DNA of 64,000 bases. It comes from a virus. Numbering within the stretch: the first letter of the stretch is position 1; each line of letters begins with the position of its first letter. The stretch is taken from UHGV virus genome UHGV-0064883. One strand, written 5' to 3'. Below are positions 12,829 to 59,191 of this stretch, in pieces. A program made the position numbers and the translations under genes. A model generated the notes under the pieces. It saw only the letters and a program-made list of their open reading frames with translations. It made no database searches and was not told the origin of the DNA.

Positions 12829-12839
12829 CCCTGAATACA

Positions 12840-13190: not shown

Positions 13191-13218
13191 AAAGCGGGTC
13201 TTAAGAAGAACAACAATA

Positions 13219-13266: not shown

Positions 13267-13294
13267 ATTGGAGGCCGCATATAACCTCCGCAAC

Positions 13295-14311
13295 ATGACC
13301 AATACCGCCAGCGCCCCCAAGATTGCCGCCCTGATGTCGTCCTACAAGCGCCCGAACGACCTTGTGAAACAGATTCTGGCCCTGCTCCACCAGACCTACG
13401 ACTGCCATATTTTCGTTGCCGTGAAGGGCCTGTCCGAACGGGACATAGACACCTGCATCCGCCCGCTTTTCGCCAAAGAGATTGAGGCCGGAAAGCTCCA
13501 TCTGGCGTACTACTCTAATAAAAGCCAGTTCAACAACATTCTTGACTGCTACCGGGGCTTTGACATCGAGCAGTTTGACTTGTACTGCAAAATTGACGAC
13601 GACGACATCTATTTTCCGACTTACCTTGAGGACGTAGCCAAGGCCGCCGTCAGCACCAGAAAGACGAACGGGGACTACTGCGGTTCCTGGTTTTCCGGGG
13701 GCCAGTGCCTGATTGCCCAAAAGTCGAACCAGAACGGAGTATTCTTTGACCGGGTTCCGGCAAACAATTTCAACATGTTTGGAAATACCCTCTGCATGTC
13801 GCGGGAGGATATGCGGCAACTTTACGCTATTGAGGCTGACCCGTCCCTGCTCACCCCGGAACGCTACCCGTTCATGAATTCGTGGCATGTGGTGCTGGCC
13901 GGATTTGTCGAAGATGCGCTGATTTACCGCATCATCCAGGCTAACGGGGGCGTCAACCGCTATGACGTGCTGGCGGCAGGCAATCCGGATTCCTCCGTGC
14001 GTCCGCAGCTCATCACTACCGGCTACGGTTCGAGCGTCACCAGAGGCGGCCTGTACCAAAACGAGTTCTATCAGAAAAACGCCCGCCTCGGACAATTGGA
14101 ACAGGAATGGACCGTGTGCCTGTATCATCCGGACTGGGGCGGCAGGAACTACAGGACATTCCGCCTGTTCAACGGCAGGGCCACCGATTTGCACAACATT
14201 GACCATGCCGGTTATAAGGAATTTGACGGCAATACGCTGGTGCTCAAATGGGACAAATGGGGCACGGAAACTTTCGTCAAAAACTCCGAAGGCGTTTACT
14301 GTTTGAAATAG
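13295..14311 (+). CDS. Putative GT-A fold (GT2-like) glycosyltransferase (338 aa)
   Basis: N-terminal SSYKRPNDL...QTYD resembles the GT2 (P)TYNR...Q(T/S) motif. A DDDD (DXD-like) run follows about 90 aa later. Weak assignment. Confidence 0.45.
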   Translation: MTNTASAPKIAALMSSYKRPNDLVKQILALLHQTYDCHIFVAVKGLSERDIDTCIRPLFAKEIEAGKLHLAYYSNKSQFNNILDCYRGFDIEQFDLYCKIDDDDIYFPTYLEDVAKAAVSTRKTNGDYCGSWFSGGQCLIAQKSNQNGVFFDRVPANNFNMFGNTLCMSREDMRQLYAIEADPSLLTPERYPFMNSWHVVLAGFVEDALIYRIIQANGGVNRYDVLAAGNPDSSVRPQLITTGYGSSVTRGGLYQNEFYQKNARLGQLEQEWTVCLYHPDWGGRNYRTFRLFNGRATDLHNIDHAGYKEFDGNTLVLKWDKWGTETFVKNSEGVYCLK

Positions 14312-14392
14312 AATGGAGACGCAAACCATTGTTTTTCTTGTCCGGCCTGTCTCCGGCAGTATAGTCAAGCGTAAGAACAGCTTTATTTTTTC

Positions 14393-15781
14393 ATGAGATT
14401 TCTTCCCTCTCTTTTTAGGCGGAAAGGCCACGAACAGCGATTGTCCGTAGCATGGAACAGTCTGGATTCCCGCCAACGGTCGGTCCTCATGGAACTCGCG
14501 TCCTATCTCGGCAACGGCATTGACGGGGACCGGACAAACCTCCGGTATATTGACCTGGTGAACCATGTCCGGGTTGACCCTCTGGACAGCTATGAAAAGT
14601 ACATCAAAACAGGGACCGGCCAGGTATGGGCGACGTTTGTAGCCTGCAATCTGGTGGCTAATGTTTTGGTGTCAACTACGTTCCAGGTTGTCAAATCCGG
14701 CTCCGATACGCCCCTTGACAGCACACGCCACCCGCTGGCAAAGCTAATCGCGCAGCCGAATGAGTGGGACTCGTGGGAGGACTTAATCTATCAGTGGGTG
14801 TTCCACATCAAACTGACCGGCAACGCGTACTGGTTAAAAAACCAGGTCAACGGATACGGGCAGCCCCTGGAACTGATTCCCCTGCTTCCGCAGTACGTCA
14901 AAATCATTCCTGACCAGACTTCCAGAATCAAGGAATACCAATACCAGGTCAATGGCCTGTGCATTACATACGCCCCGGAAGAAATTATCCATTTCCGGAG
15001 GCCCCACCCCAATTCCTTCATCCTTGGTCTGGGAGATATTGAGCCGTCAAAGTCATTGTATGAATCCTTTATTACCGGGGACGAGCTTCAAAAGCGGGTG
15101 TACTCCAATGGGGCCGTCATCAGCGGCGTATTGAGCAATGATTCCGATTTGCTCTCACAGGAGGAATTTGACCATGCCGTGGAGAGCTTCCGCTCCAAAT
15201 ACGAGGGGAAGAAAAACGCGGGAAAAACGGCGTTCCTTTCCGGCAAATGGAACTATACCCGGCTCGGAATGACCAACAGCGAGCTTCAAAGCCTTGAGCG
15301 GGACAAAACCAGCGTTGAGCAGATATTCATCAATCACGGGGTTCCCCTTTCCGTTGCGGGCATCAAGGACGCGGCCAACTACGCCACATCCAAGCAGGAC
15401 GCTATCGCGTTCCGGAAACAGGCATGCCTTCCGCTGGCCGATATTCTTGTAGGCAAATTGAACTCGGAAAAAGGGCTGACACCCGCCTACCGGGATAAAA
15501 CCCTGAAAATCGACTATAACATGTCTGGCCTCGTGGACATTGAGCAGATGGTGAAGGAAAACCAGCCGTTGCTGGAATCCGGGGCGCTTACTCCGAACGA
15601 ACTCCGGGAAAAGTGCGGCCTGTCCAGAGTTGACGACCCTTATCTTGACCAGTATTTCATCAAGTCGAATCTGGTTCCTATGGAGCTGTCCGGGATGGGC
15701 ATGGGAGAGTCGCTGGAAGAAAGCGCCCGAACGGTCGTGACCGGATTCGCCAAATCCCGTTGCGGCGGCCACCCGCATTGA
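14393..15781 (+). CDS. Portal protein (HK97/SPP1-like; assigned by position and overall composition)
   Basis: 462-aa ORF immediately upstream of the head-morphogenesis gene. Size and position are typical of portal proteins. No motif was computed. Confidence 0.55.
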   Translation: MRFLPSLFRRKGHEQRLSVAWNSLDSRQRSVLMELASYLGNGIDGDRTNLRYIDLVNHVRVDPLDSYEKYIKTGTGQVWATFVACNLVANVLVSTTFQVVKSGSDTPLDSTRHPLAKLIAQPNEWDSWEDLIYQWVFHIKLTGNAYWLKNQVNGYGQPLELIPLLPQYVKIIPDQTSRIKEYQYQVNGLCITYAPEEIIHFRRPHPNSFILGLGDIEPSKSLYESFITGDELQKRVYSNGAVISGVLSNDSDLLSQEEFDHAVESFRSKYEGKKNAGKTAFLSGKWNYTRLGMTNSELQSLERDKTSVEQIFINHGVPLSVAGIKDAANYATSKQDAIAFRKQACLPLADILVGKLNSEKGLTPAYRDKTLKIDYNMSGLVDIEQMVKENQPLLESGALTPNELREKCGLSRVDDPYLDQYFIKSNLVPMELSGMGMGESLEESARTVVTGFAKSRCGGHPH

Positions 15782-15798
15782 ACGCGCGTCGTGAACTT

Positions 15799-16443
15799 AT
15801 GGATTGGGAAACGACAATAAAAACCCTGCGGATGGCCGTGGACTGCATTGGCCCCACCATCACCGCCCTTGGGGCCATTGCCCTTTTTTTCAAACGGGTG
15901 CGGAAATACCTTTATCTGGTATTCGTCCACAAGCCGGAAACGGATAAAAAACTTTACGCTAAAGTGGATGAAATCCTGAACCGGATAGGAAAGATTGAAT
16001 CCGAACTCCGCCTCAATGACGACTCTACCGTCAAAGATGCCGTTGCCCGGCTAGAAGCCTACAGGCGTTATTCCGCGACCAACTCCATGTCCCTAATTTT
16101 CGAGCTGGATAAAACCGGAAATATTGTGCTGGTCACGGACGCTTTATGCCAGCTGGTGGAAACGGTCAGGGCCGAAGACCTGAAAGGGCAGAACTGGCGG
16201 CAATTTGTTTACATTGAAGATGAACCCAGAGTGACGGCCAACCTGTGCACCGCCGTGAAAACAGGCTCGTCCACCCGGACGAAAGTCCGTATCATCAACA
16301 GCAACAACATATCCAGAGGCGACTGGTATGTCCGGCTTAATGCCGTTACCCGGCCTGACAATTCCGTCATCATGTATATCGGGCTTTTGTACCCGGCTGA
16401 CGAACTGGCCACCAGCATCTACACGGAAAACAACTGGAAATAG
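15799..16443 (+). CDS. Hypothetical protein with an N-terminal TM segment (214 aa)
   Basis: IGPTITALGAIALFF is hydrophobic. ORF. Confidence 0.45.
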   Translation: MDWETTIKTLRMAVDCIGPTITALGAIALFFKRVRKYLYLVFVHKPETDKKLYAKVDEILNRIGKIESELRLNDDSTVKDAVARLEAYRRYSATNSMSLIFELDKTGNIVLVTDALCQLVETVRAEDLKGQNWRQFVYIEDEPRVTANLCTAVKTGSSTRTKVRIINSNNISRGDWYVRLNAVTRPDNSVIMYIGLLYPADELATSIYTENNWK

Positions 16444-18734: not shown

Positions 18735-19448
18735 ACTTTGTCTGGCTCAACAACCAATTCGGCAACCAGATATGGCAGATTGCCGTGGCAACGTTTTTTT
18801 TTTGGAAGAGGGAACTTTGCCGCGATAACCTCCTATGCCGTGCCGCTGAAAGGAATTGGCTTCCATGCATTTCTGCATGTGCCTTGTTTTCCGTTCAACC
18901 GGGAGACAAGCGCCTTAGCGCCGCAAACGGTTTACGTCAAAAGAGGAACGCCCCTGCCTCCCGGCACGAACTCTATCATTGACGGGCAGTTGCAGGACGT
19001 AGCCTGGCTGCGCGGATTGAATATCCAGCAACTATTGACGTTTGATGGCATCGATAACGATTTTCGCATTGTCCATGTCCGGGGCGGCGATTTTTTTACC
19101 AGCAAGCCGCACAGGCCCTACGTCAAGAACCGGGACTGGTATCTTAAAGCCATTGACGCTGTGCCCGATATGCGGAAGCACCTGGATAAAACAATATTGC
19201 TTACGAACGACAAAAAATACGCGGGGAAAATCCTTCCCGAATTTCCCATACTGGACGTGCCGCCTTTGACTGCGTTCCGGTTGATGATGGGCTGCCGCTC
19301 TTTGGTCATATCCGCATCAACCTTTAGCTGGTGGGCAGGGTATCTTAACCCTTCGGCACAGATTGCCTGCCCTTCCCGGTGGTGCGGCGCCGGGGAAGAT
19401 TCGGAAAAATACTACGGGCACAATCGCCTGATGTTCATACCCGATTAG
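18731..19448 (+). pseudogene. GT11 alpha-1,2-fucosyltransferase-like gene interrupted by a +1 frameshift inside a T10 tract (18794-18803); possibly phase-variable
   Basis: N-terminal frame gives MNFVWLNNQFGNQIWQIAVATFFF (GT11 motif I, GGLGNQMFQYAfA). C-terminal frame 18738..19448 gives IVHVRGGDFF (HxRRGDY) and ISASTFSWWAGYL (motif III, STFSWWAAYL). Deleting one T would restore a roughly 239-aa ORF. The start overlaps the upstream stop (ATGA). Confidence 0.7.
18794..18803. repeat. T10 homopolymer that splits the GT11 reading frame
   Basis: acg tttttttttt gg. Frame 2 runs upstream and frame 0 downstream. Confidence 0.9.
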
Positions 19449-30345: not shown

Positions 30346-33300
30346 ATGGCCCAGGCGAATCAACAGGCGGAGCGTATTATTTTTGACGCGGAAATTTCTT
30401 CCGCGCAGTCAAACCTGGCAAAACTGCGCACGGAATTAAATCTGATAGTGGCGGCGGCGGCAAAGACCAATGCCGCCCTTTCACGGATTAACCTGTCTGG
30501 GATGTTTGGCGGGGCCGGGGCGTCAGGAAAAGGGCTTTCCGGAATGGCGGGCGGCGTAAACGCGTCAAAGACATTTGCCGCAGCGCAGAATGCCGCCACC
30601 ATGTCAACAAACAGGCTGACCACAGCTATGCGGGCCGGGGTAGGCACGGCTGGAGCCTACAGCAGGGCATTGGCCGGGGCCGCCGCATCAGCCGGGCTAT
30701 TGTCCGGAAGCCGTATCGGCCAGACAATCAATACGGCGAGAGCGCCTATGCGCGGGGCCAAAGCGGAATCTGACGGGCTGCGTTCCAGCTTTTCCGGCGT
30801 AGGGCTTGCGGCTACAGGGGCCGCCGTGGCGGTGCTGGGCTTTGCTACCAAGCTCACGGGCATCATCCGGGAATCTTCGGAAGCCGCATCCAACATGCAG
30901 CAGCTGAATACTGTTTTTGGTGTATTGCTGCAAAGCCAGTCCAAAGGCTCTGCACTTCTCGAAGAGGTCACGCAGTTTGCCGCTGCCACGCCTATGAAGG
31001 TTCCGGAATTGGCCAATGCTACGCGAGTTTTGCTGGCCTACGGCGAAAGCTCCACGACTGTCATGAGCACTCTCCGGAGGCTGGGCGATATTGCGGCCGG
31101 TACGGGACAGCGCATTGATGAAATCGCCACCCTTATCGGTAAGGCGCGGCAGGCTGGCCGCCTGTACGGTGACGACCTGAACCGCCTGAATGACCGCGGC
31201 ATTCCTCTTACTGCTACATTGGCGAAAAATTTCGGCATCACCAGCATGGAAGTCCGAAAGCTGGTGGAGCAGGGGCGGGTAGGGTTTTCCGCGCTGGAAG
31301 ACGCTATTAACGAAGTAACCAACGAGGGCGGCCTTTTTTACGGCATGCTGGAAAAGCAGTCCAAAAACTATGGCGGCGTGATGTCCACGTTGGAAGATAA
31401 TATTACTCTGGCGAAAAAAGCATTTGGCGCACCTATCAATAACGCCCTGACGCCTATCCTGCAGGATGCCATTGAAATGCTCAAGGAAATGAAGCCCCAG
31501 TTTACCGAGCTGGGTGAGGCAATGGCCCCAGTAGTCGCCAGTTTGGTCACGGCGTTCAAAGACCTTGTCGTCTGGATTGGCGAAAACGGGAAGCAGGTTT
31601 TGGACCTTGTGCAGACCTACGGCCCCCTTGTGGCTAAGGCTCTGGCATTGGCGGCAGCAGTCAAAGCCGCCCAAATGGTGTTTGGCGCTCTTGGCGCCAT
31701 TATCCGGGGGATTACCGGAACCTTAAGCGGGTTTACGTCAATAATCACCACAGCCGCTTCGGCGGTGATAAACCTGGGTTCCACCCTTGACCGTCTTGCG
31801 GCTAAATATGCAACTGCCGGAGTGGCGGCCAGGACCGCAGGGGCACAAATAGCCGCCTCTTCCGCAATGATGGGGGCTGCTTCCGCAGGTGCTGCCGCCG
31901 CAGGGGCTGGCAGAGCTGGTGGAGTTGTCGGGGCCGGAATTGCCGCCGCAGGAGCCGCTGCACCAGCCATAGGGTCGGCGATACGCGGTCTTTCCACCGG
32001 CTCAAAAGTGTGGTCAGTGGTAAAGGGTGTAGGAGGCAAGCTGGGAGGAATACTTGGCCCTCTTACCGCACTGCATGTTTTAGGTAAAGTTTCTGATGGC
32101 CTGTTTTCCGGCGACGCTCCATTGTCCTGGGGAGCCAAGCTTAATTATGGGATAGCCGGCGCTCTTGGCCTGGCAAGCTTCATCCCCAAAATCGGATGGA
32201 TTACCGGCCCCCTGGGCGAGTGGTTTGCGTCAATGGGCGACGACATCAAGGAGGCGGACACGGCGAAATACATGCAGGGCCAGTATTCACAGGCGCTTAA
32301 ATCCGCCCCCGGCAAGGGCCTTAAAAACGTTTACCGGAAACAGCTGCTCAATTTGTTCCAGTCGGAAGAATCCGGGACGCGGGGCGACCGGACGGTTTCC
32401 TCCGTGCAGGAAGAACTGCGGCAGGAAATCTCAAGGCAGACTGCAATACTTGATAAACAACTCCGCGATAACACGGCTATTTCCGACGGGCAAAAAGCTT
32501 TGCTCAAGCGCCGCCTTGAATACCTCCGGAGCATTGACGACGCCACCATATCGCGGTGGACGGAACAGCTGCTTGACGAGACGAAGAACGCGGCTGGACG
32601 GGCCAAGTATGATGCGGTCATCGCCGCCGAGCAGGAAGCCGCCAGACGGGCGAATGAGGAACGGAGAGCCGCCGAACGTTATGGTCAGGTCAAGGACAAC
32701 CGCGTTAAATTACAGGAAGCGGAAATCAGGTACGCGTCCGGAATAGACCAGCAGATGTTCTGGTGGCGCAGGCGGCGGACGGCATTGCAGGAAGCGCAGC
32801 CTGACGTTCAAGCGCTGCTGACCGGCCCGGACACCGGAGCTTACATGACGGAAAAGCTTGGAGCCGATTTCCGCATCCGGGGGACCGAAGACATTAAAAA
32901 AGTGCTGGATGCGGCAGGGGAATCCGAAGACACGGTAATTTTTGCCAGCGAAAATGTGCTGAACCTCCAAAAAGCCTACGAGAAAATTCTCGACTACGAA
33001 AAAGAAGAGAAAAAACTCCGGGATTCCAAGCAGGAATACGACAGGCAGGAGGAAGAGCGGACGCGAAGCCTCAACGTGCTTAAACAGAAACTCTATCTTG
33101 ACCAGGCTTACGCCGCAGGGCTTATCAACGCGGAACAGCGAACACAGTATGAAGACCAGCTCAAGGCTATTGACGCGGCAAAATCTTTCATGGATGCCGG
33201 CATGGACCGGGAGGAAGCCATGCAGATGGGCGTGGCTTCGGTGGAAGCCGAACGGAGGGCGGCGGGGCAGGCCGCCATTGACAACGCGGCGGAAACCTAT

Positions 33301-33534
33301 AAATCCGCCGCTACGGGAACCCTTGCACGACAGGGCTGGGTGGATGTTATTTCACTGGGCTGGCGCAAGGATTCCGCCGGGGCGTATCTGGACCCGAACC
33401 GTTATGACGAACAGACCACCGGCCCCTATCAGGACGAGGACACGGATTTGTTGAAAAAAATCAACGATACGCTGGAAGCCATTCAGGCGAATACCAACCC
33501 CGACCTGAAAAAGTCCTCGGTTGTGTGGGGATAA
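30346..33534 (+). CDS. Tail tape measure protein (1062 aa)
   Basis: Length, an Ala/Gly-rich coiled-coil/TM-like central region, and the conserved TMP block GITSMEVRKLVEQGRVGFSALEDAINEVTNEGGLFYGMLEKQSKNYGGVMSTLED. Confidence 0.85.
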   Translation: MAQANQQAERIIFDAEISSAQSNLAKLRTELNLIVAAAAKTNAALSRINLSGMFGGAGASGKGLSGMAGGVNASKTFAAAQNAATMSTNRLTTAMRAGVGTAGAYSRALAGAAASAGLLSGSRIGQTINTARAPMRGAKAESDGLRSSFSGVGLAATGAAVAVLGFATKLTGIIRESSEAASNMQQLNTVFGVLLQSQSKGSALLEEVTQFAAATPMKVPELANATRVLLAYGESSTTVMSTLRRLGDIAAGTGQRIDEIATLIGKARQAGRLYGDDLNRLNDRGIPLTATLAKNFGITSMEVRKLVEQGRVGFSALEDAINEVTNEGGLFYGMLEKQSKNYGGVMSTLEDNITLAKKAFGAPINNALTPILQDAIEMLKEMKPQFTELGEAMAPVVASLVTAFKDLVVWIGENGKQVLDLVQTYGPLVAKALALAAAVKAAQMVFGALGAIIRGITGTLSGFTSIITTAASAVINLGSTLDRLAAKYATAGVAARTAGAQIAASSAMMGAASAGAAAAGAGRAGGVVGAGIAAAGAAAPAIGSAIRGLSTGSKVWSVVKGVGGKLGGILGPLTALHVLGKVSDGLFSGDAPLSWGAKLNYGIAGALGLASFIPKIGWITGPLGEWFASMGDDIKEADTAKYMQGQYSQALKSAPGKGLKNVYRKQLLNLFQSEESGTRGDRTVSSVQEELRQEISRQTAILDKQLRDNTAISDGQKALLKRRLEYLRSIDDATISRWTEQLLDETKNAAGRAKYDAVIAAEQEAARRANEERRAAERYGQVKDNRVKLQEAEIRYASGIDQQMFWWRRRRTALQEAQPDVQALLTGPDTGAYMTEKLGADFRIRGTEDIKKVLDAAGESEDTVIFASENVLNLQKAYEKILDYEKEEKKLRDSKQEYDRQEEERTRSLNVLKQKLYLDQAYAAGLINAEQRTQYEDQLKAIDAAKSFMDAGMDREEAMQMGVASVEAERRAAGQAAIDNAAETYKSAATGTLARQGWVDVISLGWRKDSAGAYLDPNRYDEQTTGPYQDEDTDLLKKINDTLEAIQANTNPDLKKSSVVWG

Positions 33535-33548
33535 TGTGATATTAGAAA

Positions 33549-33565
33549 TTTGCAATCATTGCAAA
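33549..33565. promoter_or_regulatory. 17-bp palindrome TTTGCAATCATTGCAAA
   Basis: 15 nt after the TMP stop. Confidence 0.8.
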
Positions 33566-33574
33566 TCAGGAATT

Positions 33575-34375
33575 ATGGCTATTTCACACAACGGACCGCG
33601 GGAACCCATTGAACAGCCCGGAACGATGACCGTCGAACGAGTGTCGGAAGACGGCGTAGTCCGGTTTGAAAAATCAGCAACCAGAGTGTTTGAGGTTCCG
33701 AAGGATATGGCGGCGGCCTTCATGCTGACCCCCCCGGCAACCCCCATGCCGGGAACAATCTTTTTGGAATCAAGGTGTGAAGAAGAAAATGCGGAGTGGT
33801 CCAAGGTGACATTCACCTACGGCGAAGACCCGGACGATTCATCCGGAAGCGGCGGAGACGATTCCGTGCGCCGAACGGTCAACGTCACTACCTCTTTAGT
33901 AGATATCCCTATCCAATGTTCGCCAAAGTACATTGACATTTCCGGGGATTCCCCAAAATCGAAAATTCCTGATGACGATTTAAAACTTCTAGCCTATGCC
34001 ATGTCCGGGCAGTTCAAAGACCCCCGGAACAACACCTATATTAAGGACAGCCTTACGTCGGACATGGCTCGTGAGATTTTCGACTACCTGACGCTCGGAA
34101 TCACCCACTTTGCCTATCCGCAGACCGTGATACGCATCTCTTACCCAAAGTCCAAAGTAGGTTCCGGCCAGCAATTCGGCGTTCCCACTAAAACACCCGG
34201 AAAAAAGGGAGATGCCATTCCAGTAAAACTTCCGGAAGACAGCAAAATTGATTTCACATTGATTTCCCGGTCTATCAACTACGACGGGAAATACCACACG
34301 ACAGACGAGGAATACCAGTCATCGTCCCCGTTGGGCTGGAAAAATGACCGGAAATTCTGGGGGGAAGGAGAATAA
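33575..34375 (+). CDS. Tail protein (266 aa; hypothetical, distal-tail position)
   Basis: ORF between the tape measure protein and the tail fibre. Confidence 0.5.
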   Translation: MAISHNGPREPIEQPGTMTVERVSEDGVVRFEKSATRVFEVPKDMAAAFMLTPPATPMPGTIFLESRCEEENAEWSKVTFTYGEDPDDSSGSGGDDSVRRTVNVTTSLVDIPIQCSPKYIDISGDSPKSKIPDDDLKLLAYAMSGQFKDPRNNTYIKDSLTSDMAREIFDYLTLGITHFAYPQTVIRISYPKSKVGSGQQFGVPTKTPGKKGDAIPVKLPEDSKIDFTLISRSINYDGKYHTTDEEYQSSSPLGWKNDRKFWGEGE

Positions 34376-34389
34376 ACCTGTAAAATATT

Positions 34390-36870
34390 ATGGCATTACG
34401 GCGAGTACGAAGAGGGGAACCCCTGCGTATTGGACAGATTAACCAGTACGCCGAACTTCTTGGGCAGATGGCCGGGGGCGGAAAACTTTTCCGGGCTAAC
34501 AGGACCGGCTACCAGATGGACCGGGACCTGAACCCCCTGTTCCCGTTTGAGTTGATGGCCCTGGATGCCCAGTCAAGCACCGGGGAAGCTACAAAAGGCG
34601 TGCCGCTGGCGAAATCCAAGGATTTAATTGCGTTTCTCCACCCCGGTTCCGTCACGTTTATCGGACTGGACGGCGCAGCCTCACAGGTGTTCCCGGTCAT
34701 CAAAGACCCGAAATACGCCCCTACGGATTCCCCCGGCGGAGGAAACGAGGATGGAGCCGCCGTCAATACCTGGCCCCGCCCCGGTATTCAAATTGAGCTT
34801 GATACGGTATATGGCATTCATCTGTTCGCTAAATTGGAGCGAGTGACGATGCAGATAGGCCGTGACCGGATAATTCAGGTGTCGGTCAAGAAATGGTGTC
34901 GTGACCGCACCCCGTTCATCGGCACGGAGGACGAAATGGACAGCTCCGCTTCGGACGATGAAGATATTATCCGGACGTTCATTCCATTGTTCCGGCCCAT
35001 TGAAGACAGCGCAATCGAAGGAAATGTTTATGTGGAAAACCTGCATGAAAGCGATTTAATTCTTCCGGACATTCCGCTTGAAGGCGGGTCATCATCTTCC
35101 TCAGCGTCCTCTTCATCCAGCAGCTCCAGTAGTTCGAGCGGCGGAGTATCATTCAGCAGTTCAAGCAGCTCATCATCATCAAAATCAGAGGGTTCGGAAT
35201 CCGCATCTTTTTCCTCGTCTTCGTCGTCGGCAGGCCCCTACATTGACCCTACATTGATTTCCGTGCCGGCGCGGGAACCCAATTCGGAATTCGGCGGCAT
35301 CTACCGCACCCTGAAAGGCTTTAATTTTCCGCCCAGCGATGACAAGCCGGGCATGGCCTACATCATCATTTTCAGCCCTGTCGAATCTTGCGATTGGGTA
35401 AACTTTTCCACAGCCGGATTGGTGGTAACCAAGACGGACAAACAATGGGAAGGCTATGTTGCCATTGACGACAACGGGAACTGGGATTGCAACGTCATCA
35501 TTGACGAATTCACCGACCCGGAACATACCGGTGTCCACCGCTACAAAGATTTCAAAGTCGGCTACCGGGCTAAAAAGCAGAACATAGCCGTAGATATTCT
35601 CATTGTTGACCAGGCGCCCCCGGAAGCGTCCTCTTCCTCGTCTTCGTCGTCTGTGAGTTCATCTTCGGAAGAAAAGTATTATTTCCGGTTTGTCCCTAAT
35701 AAAATTACGGTGGACAGCCAATTTCAGAAAGTACAGGGCTATATCCGCACCGACTCCCCCTACGGGTGGAAAATCCCGGAGGACTTTCCGGCGCAGTTCC
35801 CTTCCGGGAAATGGGTATCTATTTCCCCGCTGACCGGGAAAGACCACGATAATTTTGAGGTTACGTTCCAGAAAAACGAGGAAGGGACCACCCGCGACAA
35901 TCTGGTAACAGGGTACGCATTGACCTCGCACGGCACATTGATGCTGGAAGCAACCGACACCCTGAATGTCACCCAGACCCCGGAAGCCTCTTTATCCAGC
36001 AGTTCCAGTAGTTCGAGCAGTTCCTCTTCATCTTCCTCGTCTTCCTCATCTTCCTCTTCCGGCTCGTCAAGCTCGTCCCAGGCGGACTGGTTTGAAGTGT
36101 TCCCCACTTCTATGGCTTTTAGCGCGGACGGCAAGCCAAAAGATTCTAACAAGGTAAGGCTTCGCGGAACGGTCGGATGGCGGGCTGATACGCAAAAAGA
36201 CTGGTGTTCCATGTCCCCGTCATCAGGCCCAGCGCCAGGGGACGCGGGAACGGAAGCCGTGATAACCTGCCAGCCGAACAAGGAGGTAAACGGAAGAAGC
36301 ACACTGGTTGAAATTAGCGTCACCCTGAATGGGTCCCCGCAATATTACTACGTCAATGTTATCCAGGAAGGCAATCCTCCTGTTCCTTCGTCGGAAAGCG
36401 AATCTTCCTCATCCTCGGAAGCCTCTTCGGGGGCCAGTTCGGCTTCATCAAGCAAAACCGCCATTTTGCCGGTGCGCGGAAAGTTCCTCGGCATGATGTG
36501 CATGGAGTCCCCGGAAACCTGGTTTATCGACTTTGCCACTATCCACCTCCCGCTTGGGCTGATGTTGGTTGACCAGACGTTCATTGATGTTACCGAGCCG
36601 GGTTCCATAGCGGTTGTGTCCGCCATAGATGACCGGGGCCGCCCCGCAAGAGCATGGCTGCGGCTGGAAGGCGGGGAAAAGAAATATCTGACCCTGTATG
36701 CCCGTCCGCAGGGGTTGGGCCGGATATTCAGGCCGGACCGCATTACCGTCCAACTGATAGGGAGGCGCCTCGGACACCGGAGCAGGTTCCCGGAATTTTC
36801 AGAAGCGCAGTTCCGGGCGAACGAAGCGTTCTACGCCCAGGCGCACAGGGAGAAAACCCCGAAAGATTAA
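34390..36870 (+). CDS. Tail fibre / receptor-binding protein with BACON-like domains and four poly-serine linkers
   Basis: Ser tracts are encoded at about 35097-35235, 35626-35665, 35992-36085 and 36395-36455. KDWCSMSPSSGPAPGDAGTEAVITCQPNKEVNGRSTLVEISVTLNGSPQYYYVNVIQEG and GKWVSISPLTGKDHDNFEVTF resemble BACON (DWlsvsp.sG.g....vtv.a..N.....R.a.itv......vtvtQ.g). Confidence 0.6.
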   Translation: MALRRVRRGEPLRIGQINQYAELLGQMAGGGKLFRANRTGYQMDRDLNPLFPFELMALDAQSSTGEATKGVPLAKSKDLIAFLHPGSVTFIGLDGAASQVFPVIKDPKYAPTDSPGGGNEDGAAVNTWPRPGIQIELDTVYGIHLFAKLERVTMQIGRDRIIQVSVKKWCRDRTPFIGTEDEMDSSASDDEDIIRTFIPLFRPIEDSAIEGNVYVENLHESDLILPDIPLEGGSSSSSASSSSSSSSSSSGGVSFSSSSSSSSSKSEGSESASFSSSSSSAGPYIDPTLISVPAREPNSEFGGIYRTLKGFNFPPSDDKPGMAYIIIFSPVESCDWVNFSTAGLVVTKTDKQWEGYVAIDDNGNWDCNVIIDEFTDPEHTGVHRYKDFKVGYRAKKQNIAVDILIVDQAPPEASSSSSSSSVSSSSEEKYYFRFVPNKITVDSQFQKVQGYIRTDSPYGWKIPEDFPAQFPSGKWVSISPLTGKDHDNFEVTFQKNEEGTTRDNLVTGYALTSHGTLMLEATDTLNVTQTPEASLSSSSSSSSSSSSSSSSSSSSSSGSSSSSQADWFEVFPTSMAFSADGKPKDSNKVRLRGTVGWRADTQKDWCSMSPSSGPAPGDAGTEAVITCQPNKEVNGRSTLVEISVTLNGSPQYYYVNVIQEGNPPVPSSESESSSSSEASSGASSASSSKTAILPVRGKFLGMMCMESPETWFIDFATIHLPLGLMLVDQTFIDVTEPGSIAVVSAIDDRGRPARAWLRLEGGEKKYLTLYARPQGLGRIFRPDRITVQLIGRRLGHRSRFPEFSEAQFRANEAFYAQAHREKTPKD

Positions 36871-36898
36871 CCTTCCCTGCCTTCCGGGGGCCTCCGGC

Positions 36899-37267
36899 CT
36901 ATGCCCATATAACATTCCCCAGCCGGGAAATATCCACCGCCTTTTTCCCGGCGCGCATAGCCGCCCTCAGTTCCCCGTAGTTCCTGCGGATTTCGTGCGT
37001 TACTGGGTAATCCCGGAACACGTTGATATAATTCAGCCACCGTTCCTTTTGCGTGTACACCGCCGAATCTTTTATTATGTAGATTGTTGCGCTTTCATCA
37101 ATTTTCCTGTCCGGGAGGCACGTGCAGCAATACCACTGATACCACTCATGAATGAGGTACACTGTATTAAAGCCGCGCAGGGTCATGACAGCCGTATCAG
37201 CGATATATTTGGGGGCCAGATTAAAAAGCTGCTCTTTGGTCAGTTCAATTTTCTTTGGTGCTTTCAT
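36899..37267 (-). CDS. Hypothetical protein (122 aa), one of only two credible minus-strand genes
   Basis: ATG ORF. The minus strand carries a TTTTTATCTTGCAAT promoter-like box (plus coordinates 37306-37320), and it shares the palindrome at 37341. Confidence 0.5.
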   Translation of the reverse strand: MKAPKKIELTKEQLFNLAPKYIADTAVMTLRGFNTVYLIHEWYQWYCCTCLPDRKIDESATIYIIKDSAVYTQKERWLNYINVFRDYPVTHEIRRNYGELRAAMRAGKKAVDISRLGNVIWA

Positions 37268-37305
37268 TGTATCTTGATGCCTTCATCATAGCTATCTTTT
37301 TAAAA

Positions 37306-37320
37306 ATTGCAAGATAAAAA
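37306..37320 (-). promoter_or_regulatory. Minus-strand copy of the TTTTTATCTTGCAAT promoter-like box
   Basis: Plus strand reads ATTGCAAGATAAAAA. Confidence 0.5.
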
Positions 37321-37340
37321 TACACATTCCGCGAGAAAAA

Positions 37341-37357
37341 TTTGCAATCATTGCAAA
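37341..37357. promoter_or_regulatory. 17-bp palindrome TTTGCAATCATTGCAAA between divergent genes
   Basis: Read directly from the sequence. Confidence 0.8.
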
Positions 37358-37410
37358 TTTCAGAAATCAATGTTGCCCATGAAAATTCAGGCGGCTATAG
37401 TGTCAAAGAC

Positions 37411-38463
37411 ATGATAACCTTAAACCATCTCGGAATATCCCACGCGGTCATCATTGCCCTGCCGGAACGTGCCGAACATGTTTCCCGGCTGAAAAACTCC
37501 ATGATTGACGGAGGCATCGACCCGGAAAGCGGCGTTACCATACTCCCCGCCTGGAACGGTCGTGAGCTGCACCCCCCGAAAAGCTGGAAGGGGACCCGTG
37601 GCGCATGGGGCTGCGTACAGTCCCACATCCGGGCCTTGCGGCTCGCAGTCAAAAACAATTGGGAATCAGTGCTCATTTTGGAGGACGACGCCATATTTTG
37701 CCGCAATGCCGCCGTCAGACTGCAAACGTTGTTTGCCGCTCTGCCGAAAGACTGGCGGTTGCTCTACCTCGGAGGCTACCACCAGAACTGGCCGAAAGAA
37801 GTCCACGCGGATTACATTCTGGCTTCCGGCATGACGGCCACCCATGCCTACATCGTCAAACGGGAATCCGTGCCCTGGCTTATCAAGCACATCGCCTATT
37901 ATCCCGACTATGAACAACAGCAATGGGGTGTTGACCAGCAAATCCGGAACGCCGTCTATCGGGGCGACATCCTCCAATACGCCCCGCGCTGGAATATTGT
38001 GGGGCAACAGCGTCAGGAGTACAGCACCATTGCCCATTCTAGAGCCGGAAACCGGGAACGCTGGTGGGAACATTCGCAAAACGACCAGTTCCGCCTGCTT
38101 CCGCTTGTACTTCTCCAAGAGCCGTTAACCGTGGAAGACGTTGACGGGCTTGAGGAACTGGTGGACATCGCCCCGGAAAAAAGCGTTGAATCCCTCCTGG
38201 AAAAAACGGAAGACATGGCCGGCGCCATCATTGAAGCACTTTCCTACAGCGCACGGGGGGCGTTCAGCCACCGGCGCGTTCCCGCCCTGTATTACAGCGA
38301 CCGGAAAGCTGCGGACAGATGCGCCCGCCTGTGGTCTGCGGAATGCCTGTTTGCCGAAGCCGGTGATTCCGACCAAACCAGGGAACTACTCGTTACCACC
38401 CTGCGCCGCATTGTCGATTATGCGGAAAACCCGGATATGAACCCGGACATGGGCGAAAACTAA
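37411..38463 (+). CDS. Glycosyltransferase family 25 (LPS-type) paralogue 1
   Basis: HAVIIALPERAEHVSRL...GAWGCVQSHIRALRLAV...VLILEDDAIFCRNA...LLYLGGYHQN. Start at the ATG at 37411; the ORF track opens with TTG at 37342, inside the palindrome. Confidence 0.7.
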   Translation: MITLNHLGISHAVIIALPERAEHVSRLKNSMIDGGIDPESGVTILPAWNGRELHPPKSWKGTRGAWGCVQSHIRALRLAVKNNWESVLILEDDAIFCRNAAVRLQTLFAALPKDWRLLYLGGYHQNWPKEVHADYILASGMTATHAYIVKRESVPWLIKHIAYYPDYEQQQWGVDQQIRNAVYRGDILQYAPRWNIVGQQRQEYSTIAHSRAGNRERWWEHSQNDQFRLLPLVLLQEPLTVEDVDGLEELVDIAPEKSVESLLEKTEDMAGAIIEALSYSARGAFSHRRVPALYYSDRKAADRCARLWSAECLFAEAGDSDQTRELLVTTLRRIVDYAENPDMNPDMGEN

Positions 38464-38485
38464 TTCTTTTTCCACGCACATTACT

Positions 38486-39526
38486 ATGGATTATTTATTT
38501 CCGCATTATTTTGACCGTATTGTCGTCATCAATCTCGCCAAAAACCCCGAACGGTTCACCCGCATTGCCGACGAGCTGAAACATAAGTGCCTGGCCGGGC
38601 CGGATGATATTGTCAGGCATGAAGCCGTGCATGGGGATTCCATGCCGCACCCGGCATGGTACAGGGCCGGAAACGGAGCATGGGGGTGCTTATCCAGCCA
38701 CATTGAGGTGCTGGAAGATGCCTGGAATACCGGAAGCGAGCATACTCTGATTATTGAGGATGACACCGTATTCGCCGACGACCTTTTGACGCGGTTCCCG
38801 GAAATCATGAAAGAAGTTCCGAAGGAATACGGGCAGCTGTATCTTGGAGGCCAGCACCAGCAGGCCCCGGAAGCCCTGTCTGACACGTTGTGGCGCGGCA
38901 CGTCCATCAACCGGACGCACTGCTACGCCGTCACCCGGAAATTCATTCCGGAAATCCTCGCCCACATCATGGACTGGGACACCCACATCAAGGCTGCGGG
39001 AAACCCGCTCCATATCGACCACACGCTGGAAATCGGACACCAGCGCCGGTACTGGCCCGTGTTCTGCCCCCGGTTCTGGTTCGCCGGGCAGGGAGAAAAC
39101 CAATCCGACATCAACGGCAGGCCGCAGCGGGAAATGTGGTGGGAATATTCCGTGAAACAACAACACCTGGAACTTCCCCTGCTTGTGTTGCGGACCGTTG
39201 ACATGCCAAAACATATTAAAGACCTTGTGTTTGCCGGTTGGCCGACAGATTTGGACGCCCGTGGCGTGAACAAAAAAATTGAGGATGCCAAAAAAGACAA
39301 GGCCACCCTGCTTCGGGAAATAAGCTGGCTGGCTTATGTGGGATTCCAACACCACAGCCTTCCGGCGGTGTATCTTCCGGAGCCGGAACCTACCAGCGAG
39401 CTGCAACGCCTGTGGTCCGGGGAAGTCGTTGACACGGCCCGCATGGATGACGCGGACATTCACCGGATGCACCGCATTCTGGAATTCGCCAGCAACCCGG
39501 AGATGCTAAAGTATAGGTTCCGATAG
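38486..39526 (+). CDS. Glycosyltransferase family 25 paralogue 2
   Basis: RIVVINLAKNPERF...GAWGCLSSHIEVLEDA...TLIIEDDTVFADD...LYLGGQHQQ. The C-terminal 130 aa are paralogous to gene 37411. Confidence 0.7.
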   Translation: MDYLFPHYFDRIVVINLAKNPERFTRIADELKHKCLAGPDDIVRHEAVHGDSMPHPAWYRAGNGAWGCLSSHIEVLEDAWNTGSEHTLIIEDDTVFADDLLTRFPEIMKEVPKEYGQLYLGGQHQQAPEALSDTLWRGTSINRTHCYAVTRKFIPEILAHIMDWDTHIKAAGNPLHIDHTLEIGHQRRYWPVFCPRFWFAGQGENQSDINGRPQREMWWEYSVKQQHLELPLLVLRTVDMPKHIKDLVFAGWPTDLDARGVNKKIEDAKKDKATLLREISWLAYVGFQHHSLPAVYLPEPEPTSELQRLWSGEVVDTARMDDADIHRMHRILEFASNPEMLKYRFR

Positions 39527-39563
39527 GTTGACGGCTTTTCCGGGCGCAAGTATCATGGCAGGC

Positions 39564-40172
39564 ATGAAACGGTTACGTTTGATGCCTGTCTTTTTTGTGA
39601 TTGCCGGGTGCGCCCAGCAAAACCCGCAGCCGTCCATTACTACGCCCGTACCGGAGCCGGTTGTGGAAAAAACAGTCGTCCGGCCTGTAGCGTCGTCAAC
39701 GGTCGAATGCGCGGCTACTGTCCAGGAAGCGGCCAACGCCGTGCAGAACAGTATTGCGGCTATTGTCTCCACTCTGCAGCAGGCGGAGGCCGCCACACAG
39801 GAACCGCAAACCCCCGGATGGGCTGACATGTTGTCCGAGCTGGCAAAGCAGGCCGGAAACGCGGATAAGCAAACCGCCGTGCTGATAGACCGTTCCGACC
39901 GCCTGACCAAACAGGTGACCGCTTTATCCGGAACGTGCGAACAACTGGCGGAAGAACGGGACGCGGCAATCAAAACCGCGCAGGAATCCAGAGACGCAGC
40001 CTCGGCAATCAAGGCGGAAGCCGCAGAGGTAAAAGCTGATGCACAGGCCCGCCTGTCCTCCATGTCGGACGAGCGTTCCTGGTGGCGGAAATGCGCCCTT
40101 TACACCTGGGCAGGCATTGCGGTTTTTTGTTTGGCGTGGCTCGGAATCCGGCTGGCAAGGGCCGCCAGATAG
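39564..40172 (+). CDS. Spanin-like lipoprotein with coiled-coil and a C-terminal TM segment (unimolecular-spanin architecture)
   Basis: MKRLRLMPVFFVIAGC (signal plus lipobox IAGC), an A/E/Q-rich coiled-coil middle, and a C-terminal ALYTWAGIAVFCLAWLGIRLA. Confidence 0.45.
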   Translation: MKRLRLMPVFFVIAGCAQQNPQPSITTPVPEPVVEKTVVRPVASSTVECAATVQEAANAVQNSIAAIVSTLQQAEAATQEPQTPGWADMLSELAKQAGNADKQTAVLIDRSDRLTKQVTALSGTCEQLAEERDAAIKTAQESRDAASAIKAEAAEVKADAQARLSSMSDERSWWRKCALYTWAGIAVFCLAWLGIRLARAAR

Positions 40173-40189: not shown

Positions 40190-40206
40190 TTTGCAATCAT
40201 TGCAAA
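40190..40206. promoter_or_regulatory. 17-bp palindrome TTTGCAATCATTGCAAA at the edge of the AT-rich region
   Basis: Read directly from the sequence. Confidence 0.8.
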
Positions 40207-58813: not shown

Positions 58814-59191
58814 ATGAGTCAAGAAACATCCAATCGTTCCAGAGCGTTGCCCCCGCAGGGAGGTTCCGCTATCGTAGAAACCGCCGTCACGCAGAACCGC
58901 GTTCCGGTAACGGGCGGTGCGCATTCCATGCCGCTGAATCCGTTGTACAATGATAACCGCCCGTCAAATAATCCGGCGTATGTGGCCGTTGGCGCGTCCC
59001 TGACGCTTCCGGGGCGGCAAATGTATTCATCCGTGAAAATTATGGCCACAGTCACCCTTCCGGCTTTTCCGGACGATGAATCCATTCAGGCTGCGGCGCA
59101 GGCCGCCGGAAATATGGCGGAAACGTTTTTATACGAAGAAGCCGACCGTTTTAAAGACTTTCTTCCGGAAGAAGGGAGGGGGCGTTGCTGA
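58814..59191 (+). CDS. Hypothetical protein (125 aa)
   Basis: ORF. Confidence 0.5.
   Translation: MSQETSNRSRALPPQGGSAIVETAVTQNRVPVTGGAHSMPLNPLYNDNRPSNNPAYVAVGASLTLPGRQMYSSVKIMATVTLPAFPDDESIQAAAQAAGNMAETFLYEEADRFKDFLPEEGRGRC

Follow-up and report, generated by a model that had tools for sequence, protein, structure and literature searches.

A candidate pathway for glycosylating, and probably sulfating, the poly-serine linkers of a putative gut phage tail fiber

A modular putative fiber gene at the end of the tail module

The window analyzed here is a 64-kb stretch of DNA from a phage that is common in the human gut and uncultured. Positions 34390-36870 of its plus strand encode an 826-aa modular putative fiber protein in which four poly-Ser linkers and a single unambiguous BACON domain can be recognized. 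The gene lies in the tail module, two genes past the tape measure gene. Because the tape measure and 284-aa genes (30346..34375) directly precede it, the fiber gene marks the distal end of this module. Linker-rich fibers and accessory genes both tend to cluster among distal tail genes, a bias that counts against the neighborhood statistics given below.

30346-33534, plus strand: tape measure protein (PF20155, 76 bits)
33521-34375, plus strand: 284-aa protein, no family match in Pfam or PHROG
34390-36870, plus strand: fiber protein, made up of an N-terminal domain, three middle modules and CTD-X, with four poly-Ser linkers
35080-35241, plus strand: poly-Ser linker 1 (aa 231-284, 67% Ser)
35236-35619, plus strand: middle module A (aa 283-410), without family match, missing in variant P0004
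35617-35676, plus strand: poly-Ser linker 2 (aa 410-429)
35659-35979, plus strand: middle module B (aa 424-530), sub-threshold BACON-like, missing in variants P0001-P0003
35980-36087, plus strand: poly-Ser linker 3 (aa 531-566, 78% Ser)
36085-36384, plus strand: BACON domain (aa 566-665)
36382-36456, plus strand: poly-Ser linker 4 (aa 665-689), with a conserved K-TAILP motif at its end
36454-36870, plus strand: CTD-X, a C-terminal beta-sandwich of ~135 aa

An earlier sequence-only reading had described a tail-fiber gene with four poly-Ser linkers, and this description is confirmed: each of the four tracts is 60-78% Ser, and no other coding frame of the 64-kb window holds a comparable tract. 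All six Ser codons, TCN and AGY, are mixed in these tracts (entropy 2.47 bits in linker 1), which argues for selection at the protein level rather than a DNA repeat artifact. The BACON-like domains, proposed in the plural, are reduced to a single solid case. PF13004 scores 34.9 bits at aa 566-665 of the full protein, and the same segment scanned alone reaches 30.3 bits for BACON_2 (PF19190) and 28.9 bits for BACON (PF13004), all above threshold. Module B scores only 15.9 bits, below threshold, with a BLAST E of 0.002 against the true BACON domain, and a family search with the third module (aa 283-410) gave no match. Close variants of the fiber, 95-99% identical elsewhere, lack whole middle modules, and the breakpoints fall within the Ser tracts. 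The full protein has no match in PHROG.

CTD-X is always found at the extreme C-terminus of variable phage fiber proteins, usually preceded by a low-complexity linker and a K(x)TAIVP motif. A search of 1.84 billion proteins recovered 199 representatives (E <= 0.001), and one endosialidase domain occurs in the family. The AF2 model of CTD-X (pLDDT about 90) has no significant match among PDB folds, and it resembles BFVD proteins labeled as tail protein or tail fiber (E 4e-6 to 3e-3).

Two GT25 paralogs downstream of the fiber gene

A minus-strand ORF and a palindrome, the latter a putative promoter/operator, separate the fiber gene from a palindrome-bracketed unit situated between the tail and lysis modules.

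37342-37356, no strand: 15-bp palindrome TTGCAATCATTGCAA, lying ahead of GT25a, with another copy (40191-40205) at the far end of the unit
37411-38463, plus strand: GT25a (PF01755, 35.4 bits), a GT-A catalytic domain with a C-terminal extension of ~130 aa
38486-39526, plus strand: GT25b (PF01755, 30.0 bits), 346 aa
39528-40172, plus strand: lipoprotein carrying a transmembrane segment at its C-terminus, part of this unit

The palindrome occurs 19 times in the window, against 0.23 copies expected, and it also brackets the sulfation operon described below (at 5559 and 9617). The lipoprotein has a weak MbeD/MobD match, below cut-off, and may be a u-spanin-like or exclusion protein.

Both GT25 genes are intact and exceed the PF01755 cut-off of 24 bits, as expected from their initial annotation as two GT25 paralogs. 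The GT25a ORF opens at TTG 37342, but its likely start is ATG 37411, the position first assigned, which is in register with the N-termini of homologs. The two proteins are full-length paralogs (27% identity, E 4e-37), and the E91-D92-D93 (EDD) motif is invariant across 23 sequences. GT25a and GT25b are GT25-family glycosyltransferases, and members of such a family would be expected to transfer a hexose from a UDP-sugar to a defined acceptor.

Pfam names this family after LPS biosynthesis, and PHROGs files its nearest families under moron/host takeover. The closest solved relatives are of a different kind. The AF2 model of GT25b (pLDDT 90.9) has COLGALT1 and mimivirus R655 as its best PDB fold matches. 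A GT25 profile searched against PDB sequences gave E-values of 8e-15 for COLGALT1, 2e-12 for R655 and 0.002 for bacterial GT25, and the fold search orders these relatives in the same way, with bacterial oligosaccharide-type GT25 last. The profile is therefore ~12 orders of magnitude nearer to protein-directed than to oligosaccharide-directed GT25, with only the ~235 N-terminal residues of the phage enzymes aligning to COLGALT1 and R655. The C-terminal extension returned no match. As judged from sequence, the fiber and GT25 proteins carry no signal peptides, consistent with modification in the cytoplasm.

A sulfation operon and other candidate glycosyltransferases

Genes for a sulfation pathway are encoded 28 kb from the GT25 genes, and a fucosyltransferase-like gene is located within the head module.

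5595-9482, plus strand: sulfation operon, with palindromes at both ends, composed of the next five genes
5595-6290, plus strand: Sulfotransfer_2 (30.8 bits, above cut-off)
6256-7107, plus strand: CysD (PAPS_reduct, 102.3 bits, above cut-off)
7138-7860, plus strand: GT32-like (23.0 bits, cut-off 23)
7910-8761, plus strand: CysN-like GTPase (46.9 bits, above cut-off)
8862-9479, plus strand: APS kinase, CysC (69.8 bits, above cut-off)
18738-19448, plus strand: GT11-like fucosyltransferase (PF01531, 40.4 bits, cut-off 23.9)

The CysN-like protein is short (283 aa) and consists of the GTPase domain alone. The operon had been read as containing a GT32. Its other genes are secure, but the GT32-like score, from the DXD region of Gly_transf_sug, equals the Pfam cut-off with no margin. 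By phmmer this gene connects transitively, via locus L101, to clear GT32-like genes that abut GT25 elsewhere. The proposed GT11 fucosyltransferase exceeds its profile threshold, but the match spans only profile positions 163-269 of 298, and its motif HVRGGDF replaces the second Arg of the GDP-fucose motif HxRRGD. One GT11 homolog lies near a GT25 gene, in L067.

Two other proposed glycosyltransferases were not confirmed. The ORF at 13241, corresponding to a GT2-like gene placed at 13295, has no Pfam or PHROG match, and among PDB sequences SpsA comes closest to it, with an E-value of 0.78. A 251-aa gene described as duplicated and GT25-like is indeed copied, since it lies within a 1,670-bp tandem repeat whose two units are identical (window 1-1670 = 1670-3339), but its product matches nothing in Pfam, PHROG, PDB or the GT25 profile. 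Four of the at least six glycosyltransferases originally counted therefore stand, one of them borderline.

Poly-Ser neighbors of GT25 genes

The neighborhood sample comprised 80 viral loci with this GT25 subfamily, forming 42 clusters at 70% identity. A poly-Ser protein is encoded at gene position -1 to -3 in 25 of these clusters, always upstream and on the same strand, and 12 of 18 clusters at 50% identity also have an upstream poly-Ser protein. Counted by gene, poly-Ser proteins make up 30/122 at -1 to -3 versus 3/628 elsewhere in the loci (Fisher p 3e-22), where all of these counts come from related loci that are not phylogenetically independent. Several of the clusters scored as negative contain sub-threshold Ser/Gly tracts.

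The 73 poly-Ser neighbors fall into at least 25 sequence-unrelated families, and the C-terminal domain of the window protein occurs in only one of them. This diversity indicates that GT25 is linked to poly-Ser itself and not to one syntenic gene. The converse also holds in a small sample (n = 6): among fiber-family members, GT25 lies downstream in 2/2 with Ser linkers and in 0/4 with no linker or a collagen linker.

Sulfotransferases are repeatedly joined to these enzymes. GT25-Sulfotransfer_3 fusion proteins are encoded in L061, L068 and L034, the last from a phage related to the one in the window. The fusion in L079 is weaker (Sulfotransfer_3 E 3e-4, below cut-off), and in L087 the sulfotransferase part alone is recognized by Pfam, the GT25 part being detected with the profile built in this analysis. 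A Sulfotransfer_2-GT32 fusion is present in L018, and in 30 loci the GT25 gene has a GT32-like gene directly beside it. Through these neighborhoods and fusions, the sulfation operon of the window is probably linked to its GT25 module.

Bacterial GT25 homologs belong almost entirely to Verrucomicrobiota and Planctomycetota. A Verrucomicrobium carries a GT32-sulfotransferase-GT25-sulfotransferase-CysC cluster, and GT25 genes on PVC chromosomes are sometimes found beside giant RHS-repeat proteins with poly-Ser tracts, although only 5/35 bacterial GT25 loci have a poly-Ser neighbor. The phage is probably siphovirus-type with a PVC (Planctomycetota-Verrucomicrobiota-Chlamydiota) host, by inference Akkermansia.

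A proposed function and its alternatives

Gene content, folds and conserved associations are direct observations. We consider it somewhat better than an even bet (about 0.55) that the Ser-rich linkers receive O-glycans in the cytoplasm and that the glycan is probably sulfated afterwards. The proposal that GT25 enzymes act on the poly-Ser fiber, with sulfation in the same pathway, now has strong backing from neighborhoods, fusions and relatives, all of it in the form of association. Arguing against it are the ORF and palindrome that intervene between the fiber and GT25 genes of the window, and the 28-kb distance to the sulfation genes. The fiber would resemble beads on a string: poly-Ser would connect an attachment part at the N-terminus, swappable Ig-like/BACON modules and the conserved beta-sandwich at the C-terminus. 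GT25a and GT25b, soluble enzymes of GT-A fold in which the E-D-D metal/nucleotide-sugar motif is intact, would O-glycosylate linker Ser hydroxyls in the host cytoplasm, ahead of virion assembly, and may add different sugars or work in sequence. The GT32-like and GT11-like enzymes would probably extend the glycan, which the phage Sulfotransfer_2 could then sulfate using PAPS supplied by the phage CysD, CysN and CysC proteins. What accepts the glycan, which sugars it contains, what is sulfated and how the phage benefits are all inferred. The result may be a mucin-like brush on the fiber that is stiff, negatively charged and resistant to proteases. Mucin mimicry, mucus adhesion and immune masking as its purpose are speculation.

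It is possible, though unlikely, that the GT25, GT32, GT11, sulfotransferase and PAPS genes instead serve to remodel an envelope glycan of the infected host (LPS/LOS core, capsule or exopolysaccharide), either blocking superinfection or stopping progeny from re-adsorbing to debris, and that the poly-Ser tracts are unmodified linkers. The database labels for GT25 suit this explanation, as do the position of these genes between tail and lysis modules, which is a usual accessory-gene place, and the inclusion in their unit of a lipoprotein weakly like an entry-exclusion protein. Many bacterial homologs also have no poly-Ser neighbor, and some share a glycan-type cluster with GT32, sulfotransferase and CysC genes. 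Left unexplained are the poly-Ser proteins of at least 25 families directly upstream of GT25 and almost nowhere else, and the far closer resemblance to protein-directed GT25; this LPS/CPS alternative, raised at the outset, is thereby weakened. Lysogenic conversion is unlikely because a Pfam scan of ORFs revealed no integrase or lysogeny module in the 64 kb.

We regard as improbable an association without function, in which poly-Ser is the preferred fiber linker of PVC phages, GT25 is common tail-end cargo and the virion is unglycosylated. Fiber-family linkers vary widely and are often Gly-, Asp- or Glu-rich instead of Ser-rich, so poly-Ser may be just a flexible spacer, as in bacterial polysaccharide-degrading enzymes (PMC6821194), and 17/42 clusters have no clear poly-Ser neighbor. 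Yet other large tail genes in the loci lack poly-Ser (3/628 genes), and GT25 is absent from all four fiber-family loci without Ser linkers. Furthermore, the fusions and the tight GT25-GT32 pairing indicate a dedicated glycan pathway, and the pairing with poly-Ser recurs with bacterial RHS proteins.

Least probable is that GT25 modifies the fiber, or another phage or host protein, outside poly-Ser tracts that merely mark a flexible presenting region: by analogy with COLGALT1 and hydroxylysine, the site could be the invariant Lys/Thr of K(x)TAIVP, strongly conserved at the linker/CTD-X junction, or collagen-like repeats, which are present in 18/108 fiber-family members and in a protein adjoining the module in marine loci L007-L010, and many small poly-Ser proteins end in G-S-x-K-S; but a Pfam scan of window ORFs found no lysyl hydroxylase, Pfam found no collagen repeat in the window fiber, and most GT25-adjacent poly-Ser proteins lack both the motif and such repeats.

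Relation to known systems

The Gram-positive adhesins Fap1, GspB and PsrP have Ser-rich tracts that are O-glycosylated in the cytoplasm by adjacently encoded dedicated enzymes, yielding a stiff stalk that presents binding domains. Initiation by the GT4 pair GtfA/GtfB, export by SecA2/SecY2 (accessory Sec) and cell-wall anchoring complete these systems, and serine-rich repeat glycoproteins are not known to be viral or sulfated. The window module would work like this system (for Fap1, see PMC2952246) without being a member, since Pfam found no GtfA/GtfB pair, no SecA2/SecY2 genes and no cell-wall anchoring among the window ORFs scanned.

COLGALT1 (GLT25D1) and mimivirus R655, R699 and L230 are likewise GT25 enzymes with a repetitive, extended protein substrate, and mimivirus encodes both its collagen-like protein and the enzymes (PMC9546862, which describes the roles of COLGALT1 and R655). 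Their acceptor is hydroxylysine in Gly-X-Y, whereas the recurrent neighbor here is poly-Ser. Bacterial GT25 lipo-oligosaccharide beta-1,4-galactosyltransferases (Lgt/Lic2 type; PDB 8xlz, 8xc8 series) share the Pfam/CAZy family and GT-A fold. They are far more distant from the phage enzymes than COLGALT1 is, and their acceptor is an oligosaccharide. To our knowledge, they have no link to poly-Ser proteins.

A precedent comes from mycobacteriophages, whose glycosyltransferases have been proposed or shown to modify structural proteins of the same phage within the infected cell, altering recognition of the virion (Freeman et al. 2023, Cell Host Microbe 31:1216). Their hosts are Actinobacteria. According to citing papers, the acceptors are capsid proteins, and these papers report neither GT25 nor poly-Ser linkers, a GT32 partner, a sulfotransferase or a PAPS pathway. 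In crAss-like and other gut phages, BACON/Ig-like modules occur in tail and decoration proteins, where a role in binding cell-surface or mucus glycans has been suggested (de Jonge et al. 2019, PMC6949934). Those phages infect Bacteroidota. In the window phage, BACON is one exchangeable module among several. Serine linkers go unmentioned in that paper, where the sole occurrence of "glycosyl" refers to a BLAST match with a glycosyl hydrolase and not to a partner glycosyltransferase. Homopolymeric Ser tracts also join globular, carbohydrate-related domains in bacterial polysaccharide-degrading enzymes, where they are seen as linkers or a possible source of genome instability and have no dedicated adjacent glycosyltransferase (PMC6821194).

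Implications

We found no description of a poly-Ser fiber combined with GT25 and a sulfation module in cultured phages or the searched literature, within which sugar-coated, probably sulfated fibers have not been described before for phages. Because the same pairing, often with fused sulfotransferases, recurs in dozens of unrelated phages, such fibers are probably a feature of many phages besides the one examined here.

The Fibre Protein and Its Neighbors

The sequence-only reading of this phage drew attention to a tail-fibre gene with four poly-serine linkers and, directly downstream, two GT25 glycosyltransferase genes. Both components are borne out. The fibre protein is 826 aa long and carries four Ser-rich tracts (aa 231-284, 410-429, 531-566, and 665-689), and the two downstream genes encode full-length GT25 paralogs with 27% identity, for which the profile assignment holds. 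The region is arranged as follows:

34390-36870, plus strand: fibre gene
36899-37267, minus strand: 122-aa ORF; an AT-rich gap with a palindrome comes next
37411-38463, plus strand: GT25a, whose start agrees with the alignment
38486-39526, plus strand: GT25b
39528-40172, plus strand, abutting GT25b: protein with a lipoprotein signal (…FFVIAGC) and a C-terminal transmembrane segment

The fibre tracts use all six Ser codons, and no comparable Ser tract occurs in any other coding frame of the window. Of the BACON-like domains that had been proposed, a Pfam BACON search places aa 566-665 above the Pfam thresholds, and aa 424-530 (module B) falls short, resembling BACON at 15.9 bits, with E 0.002 to the BACON domain at aa 566-665. 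Module A (aa 283-410) has no match in family searches. Four near-identical fibre relatives (P0001-P0004; 95-99% identity elsewhere) lack the whole of module A or B, with breakpoints inside the Ser tracts. This means that the middle modules can be regarded as exchangeable cassettes with the tracts as their joints, and that poly-Ser-coding DNA appears to provide recombination joints for domain shuffling.

The structural model of the full-length fibre is poor (mean pLDDT 45) and is confident only for aa 690-826 and a short N-terminal helix. The last ~135 residues, here termed CTD-X, are predicted to form a beta-sandwich (pLDDT about 90), and a PDB fold search with the fibre model gave nothing significant, the best match being a pyocin fibre (E 0.011). 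About 199 representatives of CTD-X were found at E <= 0.001 among 1.84 billion proteins. The domain always lies at the extreme C-terminus, in proteins of 104-1,402 aa, and usually follows a low-complexity linker and a K(x)TAIVP motif. Collagen repeats are present in 18 of 108 family members, BACON domains in five, and an endosialidase domain in one. The product of 34390-36870 is best read as a putative distal fibre because CTD-X resembles BFVD proteins annotated as tail protein or tail fibre, because in a marine relative the module comes after a 1,675-aa tail-fibre gene, and because the gene follows that for the tape measure protein. PHROGs returned no match for the fibre, a 284-aa protein, a 251-aa protein, the ORF at 13241, or the lipoprotein.

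Assignment of the Glycosyltransferases

The predicted structure of GT25b (pLDDT 90.9) comprises a GT-A domain and an alpha/beta extension of ~130 aa, and E91-D92-D93 and other residues of the catalytic region are invariant in 23 homologs. Its best fold matches in the PDB are human COLGALT1 and mimivirus R655, followed by bacterial beta-1,4-galactosyltransferases. The GT25 family profile matches COLGALT1 at E 8e-15 and R655 at 2e-12, and bacterial GT25 proteins at only 0.002. The acceptor of COLGALT1 is hydroxylysine in collagen, and R655 putatively glycosylates viral collagen (PMC9546862). Thus, the profile scores, the order of fold matches, and the roles of these two enzymes place the phage subfamily nearer to protein-directed than to oligosaccharide-directed GT25 enzymes.

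Elsewhere in the window, a profile match supports the GT11-like gene, and the Sulfotransfer_2, CysD, CysN-like GTPase, and APS kinase genes of the sulfation operon (5595-9482) were confirmed. The proposed GT32 of that operon gives a borderline match and is best called GT32-like. Two further candidates were abandoned. The ORF at 13241, once considered GT2-like, found no support from any profile or in family and PDB sequence searches. The duplicated 251-aa protein, taken earlier for a GT25 relative, reaches only E 0.17 by BLAST and gives nothing with the GT25 profile at E 10, and Pfam, PHROGs, and PDB sequences lend no support. Its duplication belongs to a perfect 1,670-bp tandem repeat, in which window positions 1-1670 are identical to 1670-3339. 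Either a recent duplication or an artifact of assembly or terminal redundancy could account for the repeat.

GT25 Genes Track Poly-Serine Proteins

The close homologs of GT25b are few and all reside on phage-like contigs, and low-complexity proteins of the Ser, Gly, or collagen type closely precede GT25 in the first six contexts. An IMG/VR scan with the GT25 family alignment yielded 211 relatives, of which 80 loci were analyzed. With GT25 proteins grouped at 70% identity into 42 clusters, and poly-Ser defined as at least nine Ser in 12 residues, a poly-Ser protein is encoded at gene position -1 to -3 in 25 clusters, always on the same strand. Poly-Ser genes make up 30/122 genes at these positions versus 3/628 elsewhere (Fisher p 3e-22, phylogeny ignored). 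At 50% identity, 12 of 18 clusters retain such a neighbor. Several of the 17 clusters (of 42) without a clear poly-Ser neighbor have Ser/Gly tracts below threshold. In the window itself, the minus-strand ORF and a palindromic element stand between the fibre gene and GT25a. The sole family match of this ORF is a far sub-threshold one to a tail chaperone, and an accessory gene may have been inserted here.

After low-complexity masking, the 73 poly-Ser neighbors represent 25 or more unrelated families, with CTD-X in only one of them, and their Ser tracts mix TCN and AGY codons. Therefore, what the GT25 gene accompanies is poly-Ser as a feature rather than one particular gene. Many linkers of fibre-family members are not Ser-rich, and a small converse test (n=6) found a downstream GT25 gene in both members with Ser linkers and in none of four members with collagen linkers or no linker. 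At four viral loci (L007-L010), a missed ORF of 268-275 aa with about 90 consecutive Ser residues (9174-10001 in L007, 275 aa) fills the gap from a collagen-repeat fibre gene to the GT25 gene, where the public call is a minus-strand ORF. Gene callers may systematically overlook such homopolymeric Ser genes.

A Link to Sulfation

GT32-like genes adjoin the GT25 gene in 30 loci, mostly directly downstream, and Sulfotransfer_2 genes are present in 12. Pfam identifies fusions of GT25 to Sulfotransfer_3 in three loci (L034, L061, and L068), and the L034 phage has capsid, connector, lysin, and ATPase genes in common with that of the window. A weaker fusion of the same kind occurs in L079 (Sulfotransfer_3 E 3e-4, below cut-off), and in L087 Pfam detects the sulfotransferase alone, with the GT25 region recognized by a purpose-built GT25 profile. 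L018 encodes a Pfam-supported fusion of Sulfotransfer_2 to GT32/Caps_synth. In two Verrucomicrobium genomes, GT32, sulfotransferase, GT25, a second sulfotransferase, and CysC genes lie in one cluster.

These fusions and neighborhoods tie the distant sulfation operon of the window to the GT25 module. The link holds at the family level only, as BLAST of the window sulfotransferase, GT32-like, and CysD proteins against the other loci found no close homologs. Judged from these sequences, the glycan product is likely to be sulfated. The connection to GT11 is thin, since such a gene lies near GT25 in only one other locus.

Proposed Mechanism and Alternatives

We propose, with a probability of about 0.55 for the mechanism as a whole, that GT25a and GT25b O-glycosylate the Ser linkers of the fibre in the cytoplasm. 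The GT32-like and GT11-like enzymes would then extend the glycan, which would be sulfated with phage-made PAPS. The benefit would likely lie in linker stiffening, protease protection, and a charged glycan coat; roles in adhesion or mimicry are speculative.

Remodeling of the host envelope by these enzymes is unlikely. The family labels and the accessory-gene position of the enzymes would suit such a role, as would the unit that the GT25 genes share with the lipoprotein gene. This lipoprotein gene directly precedes holin- and lysozyme-like genes, its MbeD/MobD match is below cut-off, and it may encode either a unimolecular spanin or a lipoprotein for exclusion. However, envelope remodeling leaves unexplained both the tracking of poly-Ser by GT25 and its affinity to COLGALT1. 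A coincidence devoid of function, produced by linker preference and cargo position, is distinctly improbable. It is very unlikely that the sugars go to another site, for example collagen repeats or the conserved K(x)TAIVP residues Lys or Thr.

In its working, glycosylation of the Ser linkers would resemble the serine-rich-repeat glycoproteins of Gram-positive bacteria and the glycosylation of collagen in mimivirus, and it parallels mycobacteriophage virion glycosylation as citing papers summarize it. The phage module lies outside all three systems because its enzymes, acceptors, and sulfation arm differ. The full-text literature searched yielded no description of a phage poly-Ser/GT25/sulfotransferase module.

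Genome and Relatives of the Phage

Family searches of the ORFs indicate that the window is most of a large tailed-phage genome (64 kb, 53% G+C), with these main components:

Head genes: portal, prohead protease, HK97-type capsid protein, head-tail connectors
Tape measure gene: protein of 1,062 aa
After the tape measure gene: lysis block, then replication block with AAA ATPase, DnaB, PolA, RNase H, helicase, RecA, and RuvC
12768-13190: Cpn10/GroES-like co-chaperonin
13187-14566 (minus strand), overlapping 13241-14311 (plus strand): long ORFs just upstream of the portal gene, neither with a family match
15760-16443: protein with a weak PAS-like match, between portal and head-morphogenesis genes
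59185-60417: the phage's own RecA
15-bp palindromes: 1422, 3091, 5559, 9617, 11816, 16468, 19466, 23503, 29535, 33550, 37342, 40191, 42163, 45137, 51463, 53572, 58764, 62594, 63447

No tRNA gene was found and no large terminase was identified in the window. The perfect palindrome, TTGCAAT(C/G)ATTGCAA, occurs 19 times versus 0.23 expected, mostly in gaps that separate gene blocks. Copies at 5559 and 9617 flank the sulfation operon, and those at 37342 and 40191 flank the unit of GT25a, GT25b, and the lipoprotein gene. It probably serves across the phage genome as a promoter/operator or a boundary mark between units, bound by some dimeric protein.

Three IMG/VR contigs are 97-99% identical to the window, one of them 83.6 kb long. 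Another of the three carries a 7000000401-series IMG sample identifier, which we take to denote Human Microbiome Project gut data. Clusters at 90% contain 408 member sequences for the portal and 361 for GT25b, on contigs of up to 89 kb, and from the latter cluster the phage appears widespread. None of 50,697 reference phage genomes is a relative. DNA and protein searches of that collection with the fibre region, fibre protein, GT25b, a marine GT25, and a marine fibre gave one match only, an unannotated 484-kb uncultured phage at 27-30% identity. The module was found in no cultured phage of the collection, which hence offers no cultured model.

Hosts and Bacterial Homologs

Bacterial genome loci with this GT25 subfamily belong to Verrucomicrobiota or Planctomycetota in 30 of 35 cases, including Luteolibacter, Verrucomicrobium, Haloferula, an Akkermansia MAG, and Opitutae. 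Akkermansia would be the obvious candidate host for a human-gut phage with 53% G+C. The expectation that the poly-Ser association holds in bacterial genomes too was given up, as it is weak there (5/35 loci).

In Verrucomicrobiota and Planctomycetota chromosomes, giant RHS-repeat proteins with poly-Ser tracts (1,291-2,162 aa) are encoded beside GT25 at L110 (9048-15383), L115 (566-6652), L120 (462-6950, where a GT2-methyltransferase gene is also present), and L113 (12846-16720). An RHS protein also adjoins the GT25 gene of the Akkermansia MAG, and at L097 (4327-6045) the RHS-repeat neighbor has 572 aa and no tract above threshold. Because RHS poly-Ser proteins adjoin GT25 in bacterial chromosomes, a cellular origin is suggested for a system acting on secreted Ser-tract proteins. 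Through the chromosomal pairing, bacterial cells may glycosylate the poly-Ser of toxins that they secrete.

A more far-reaching idea, which we hold to be rather improbable, is that phages of glycan-foraging Planctomycetota-Verrucomicrobiota-Chlamydiota bacteria make sulfated, possibly fucosylated, mucin-like O-glycoprotein fibres that mimic the food of their hosts. The pathway (GT25, GT32, GT11, sulfotransferase, and PAPS synthesis) would be self-encoded and would derive its enzymes from host machinery for glycosylating secreted RHS-type proteins at their poly-Ser tracts. The food would be mucin for Akkermansia and fucoidan-like sulfated polysaccharides for marine and freshwater Verrucomicrobiota and Planctomycetota. 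The virion would be caught by the glycan-binding surface machinery of the host, adsorption to this bait replacing a conventional receptor-binding protein, or would be kept in the feeding niche of mucus or particle.

Significance

The order of poly-Ser protein, GT25, and GT32, with or without a sulfotransferase, is a simple, searchable signature. We place it in gut, freshwater, and marine samples, on no fewer than 211 contigs of uncultured viruses. If glycosylation of the Ser linkers is correct, this would be the first glycosylation system of phage structural proteins outside actinobacteriophages, and the first sulfated one. The compact enzymes might glycosylate simple (Ser)n tags and so find use in glyco-engineering. 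The same mechanism would give a function to homopolymeric Ser tracts, which gene callers sometimes miss, and a reason for a complete PAPS pathway in a phage. It would also bear on how gut phages deal with mucus, proteases, and antibodies.
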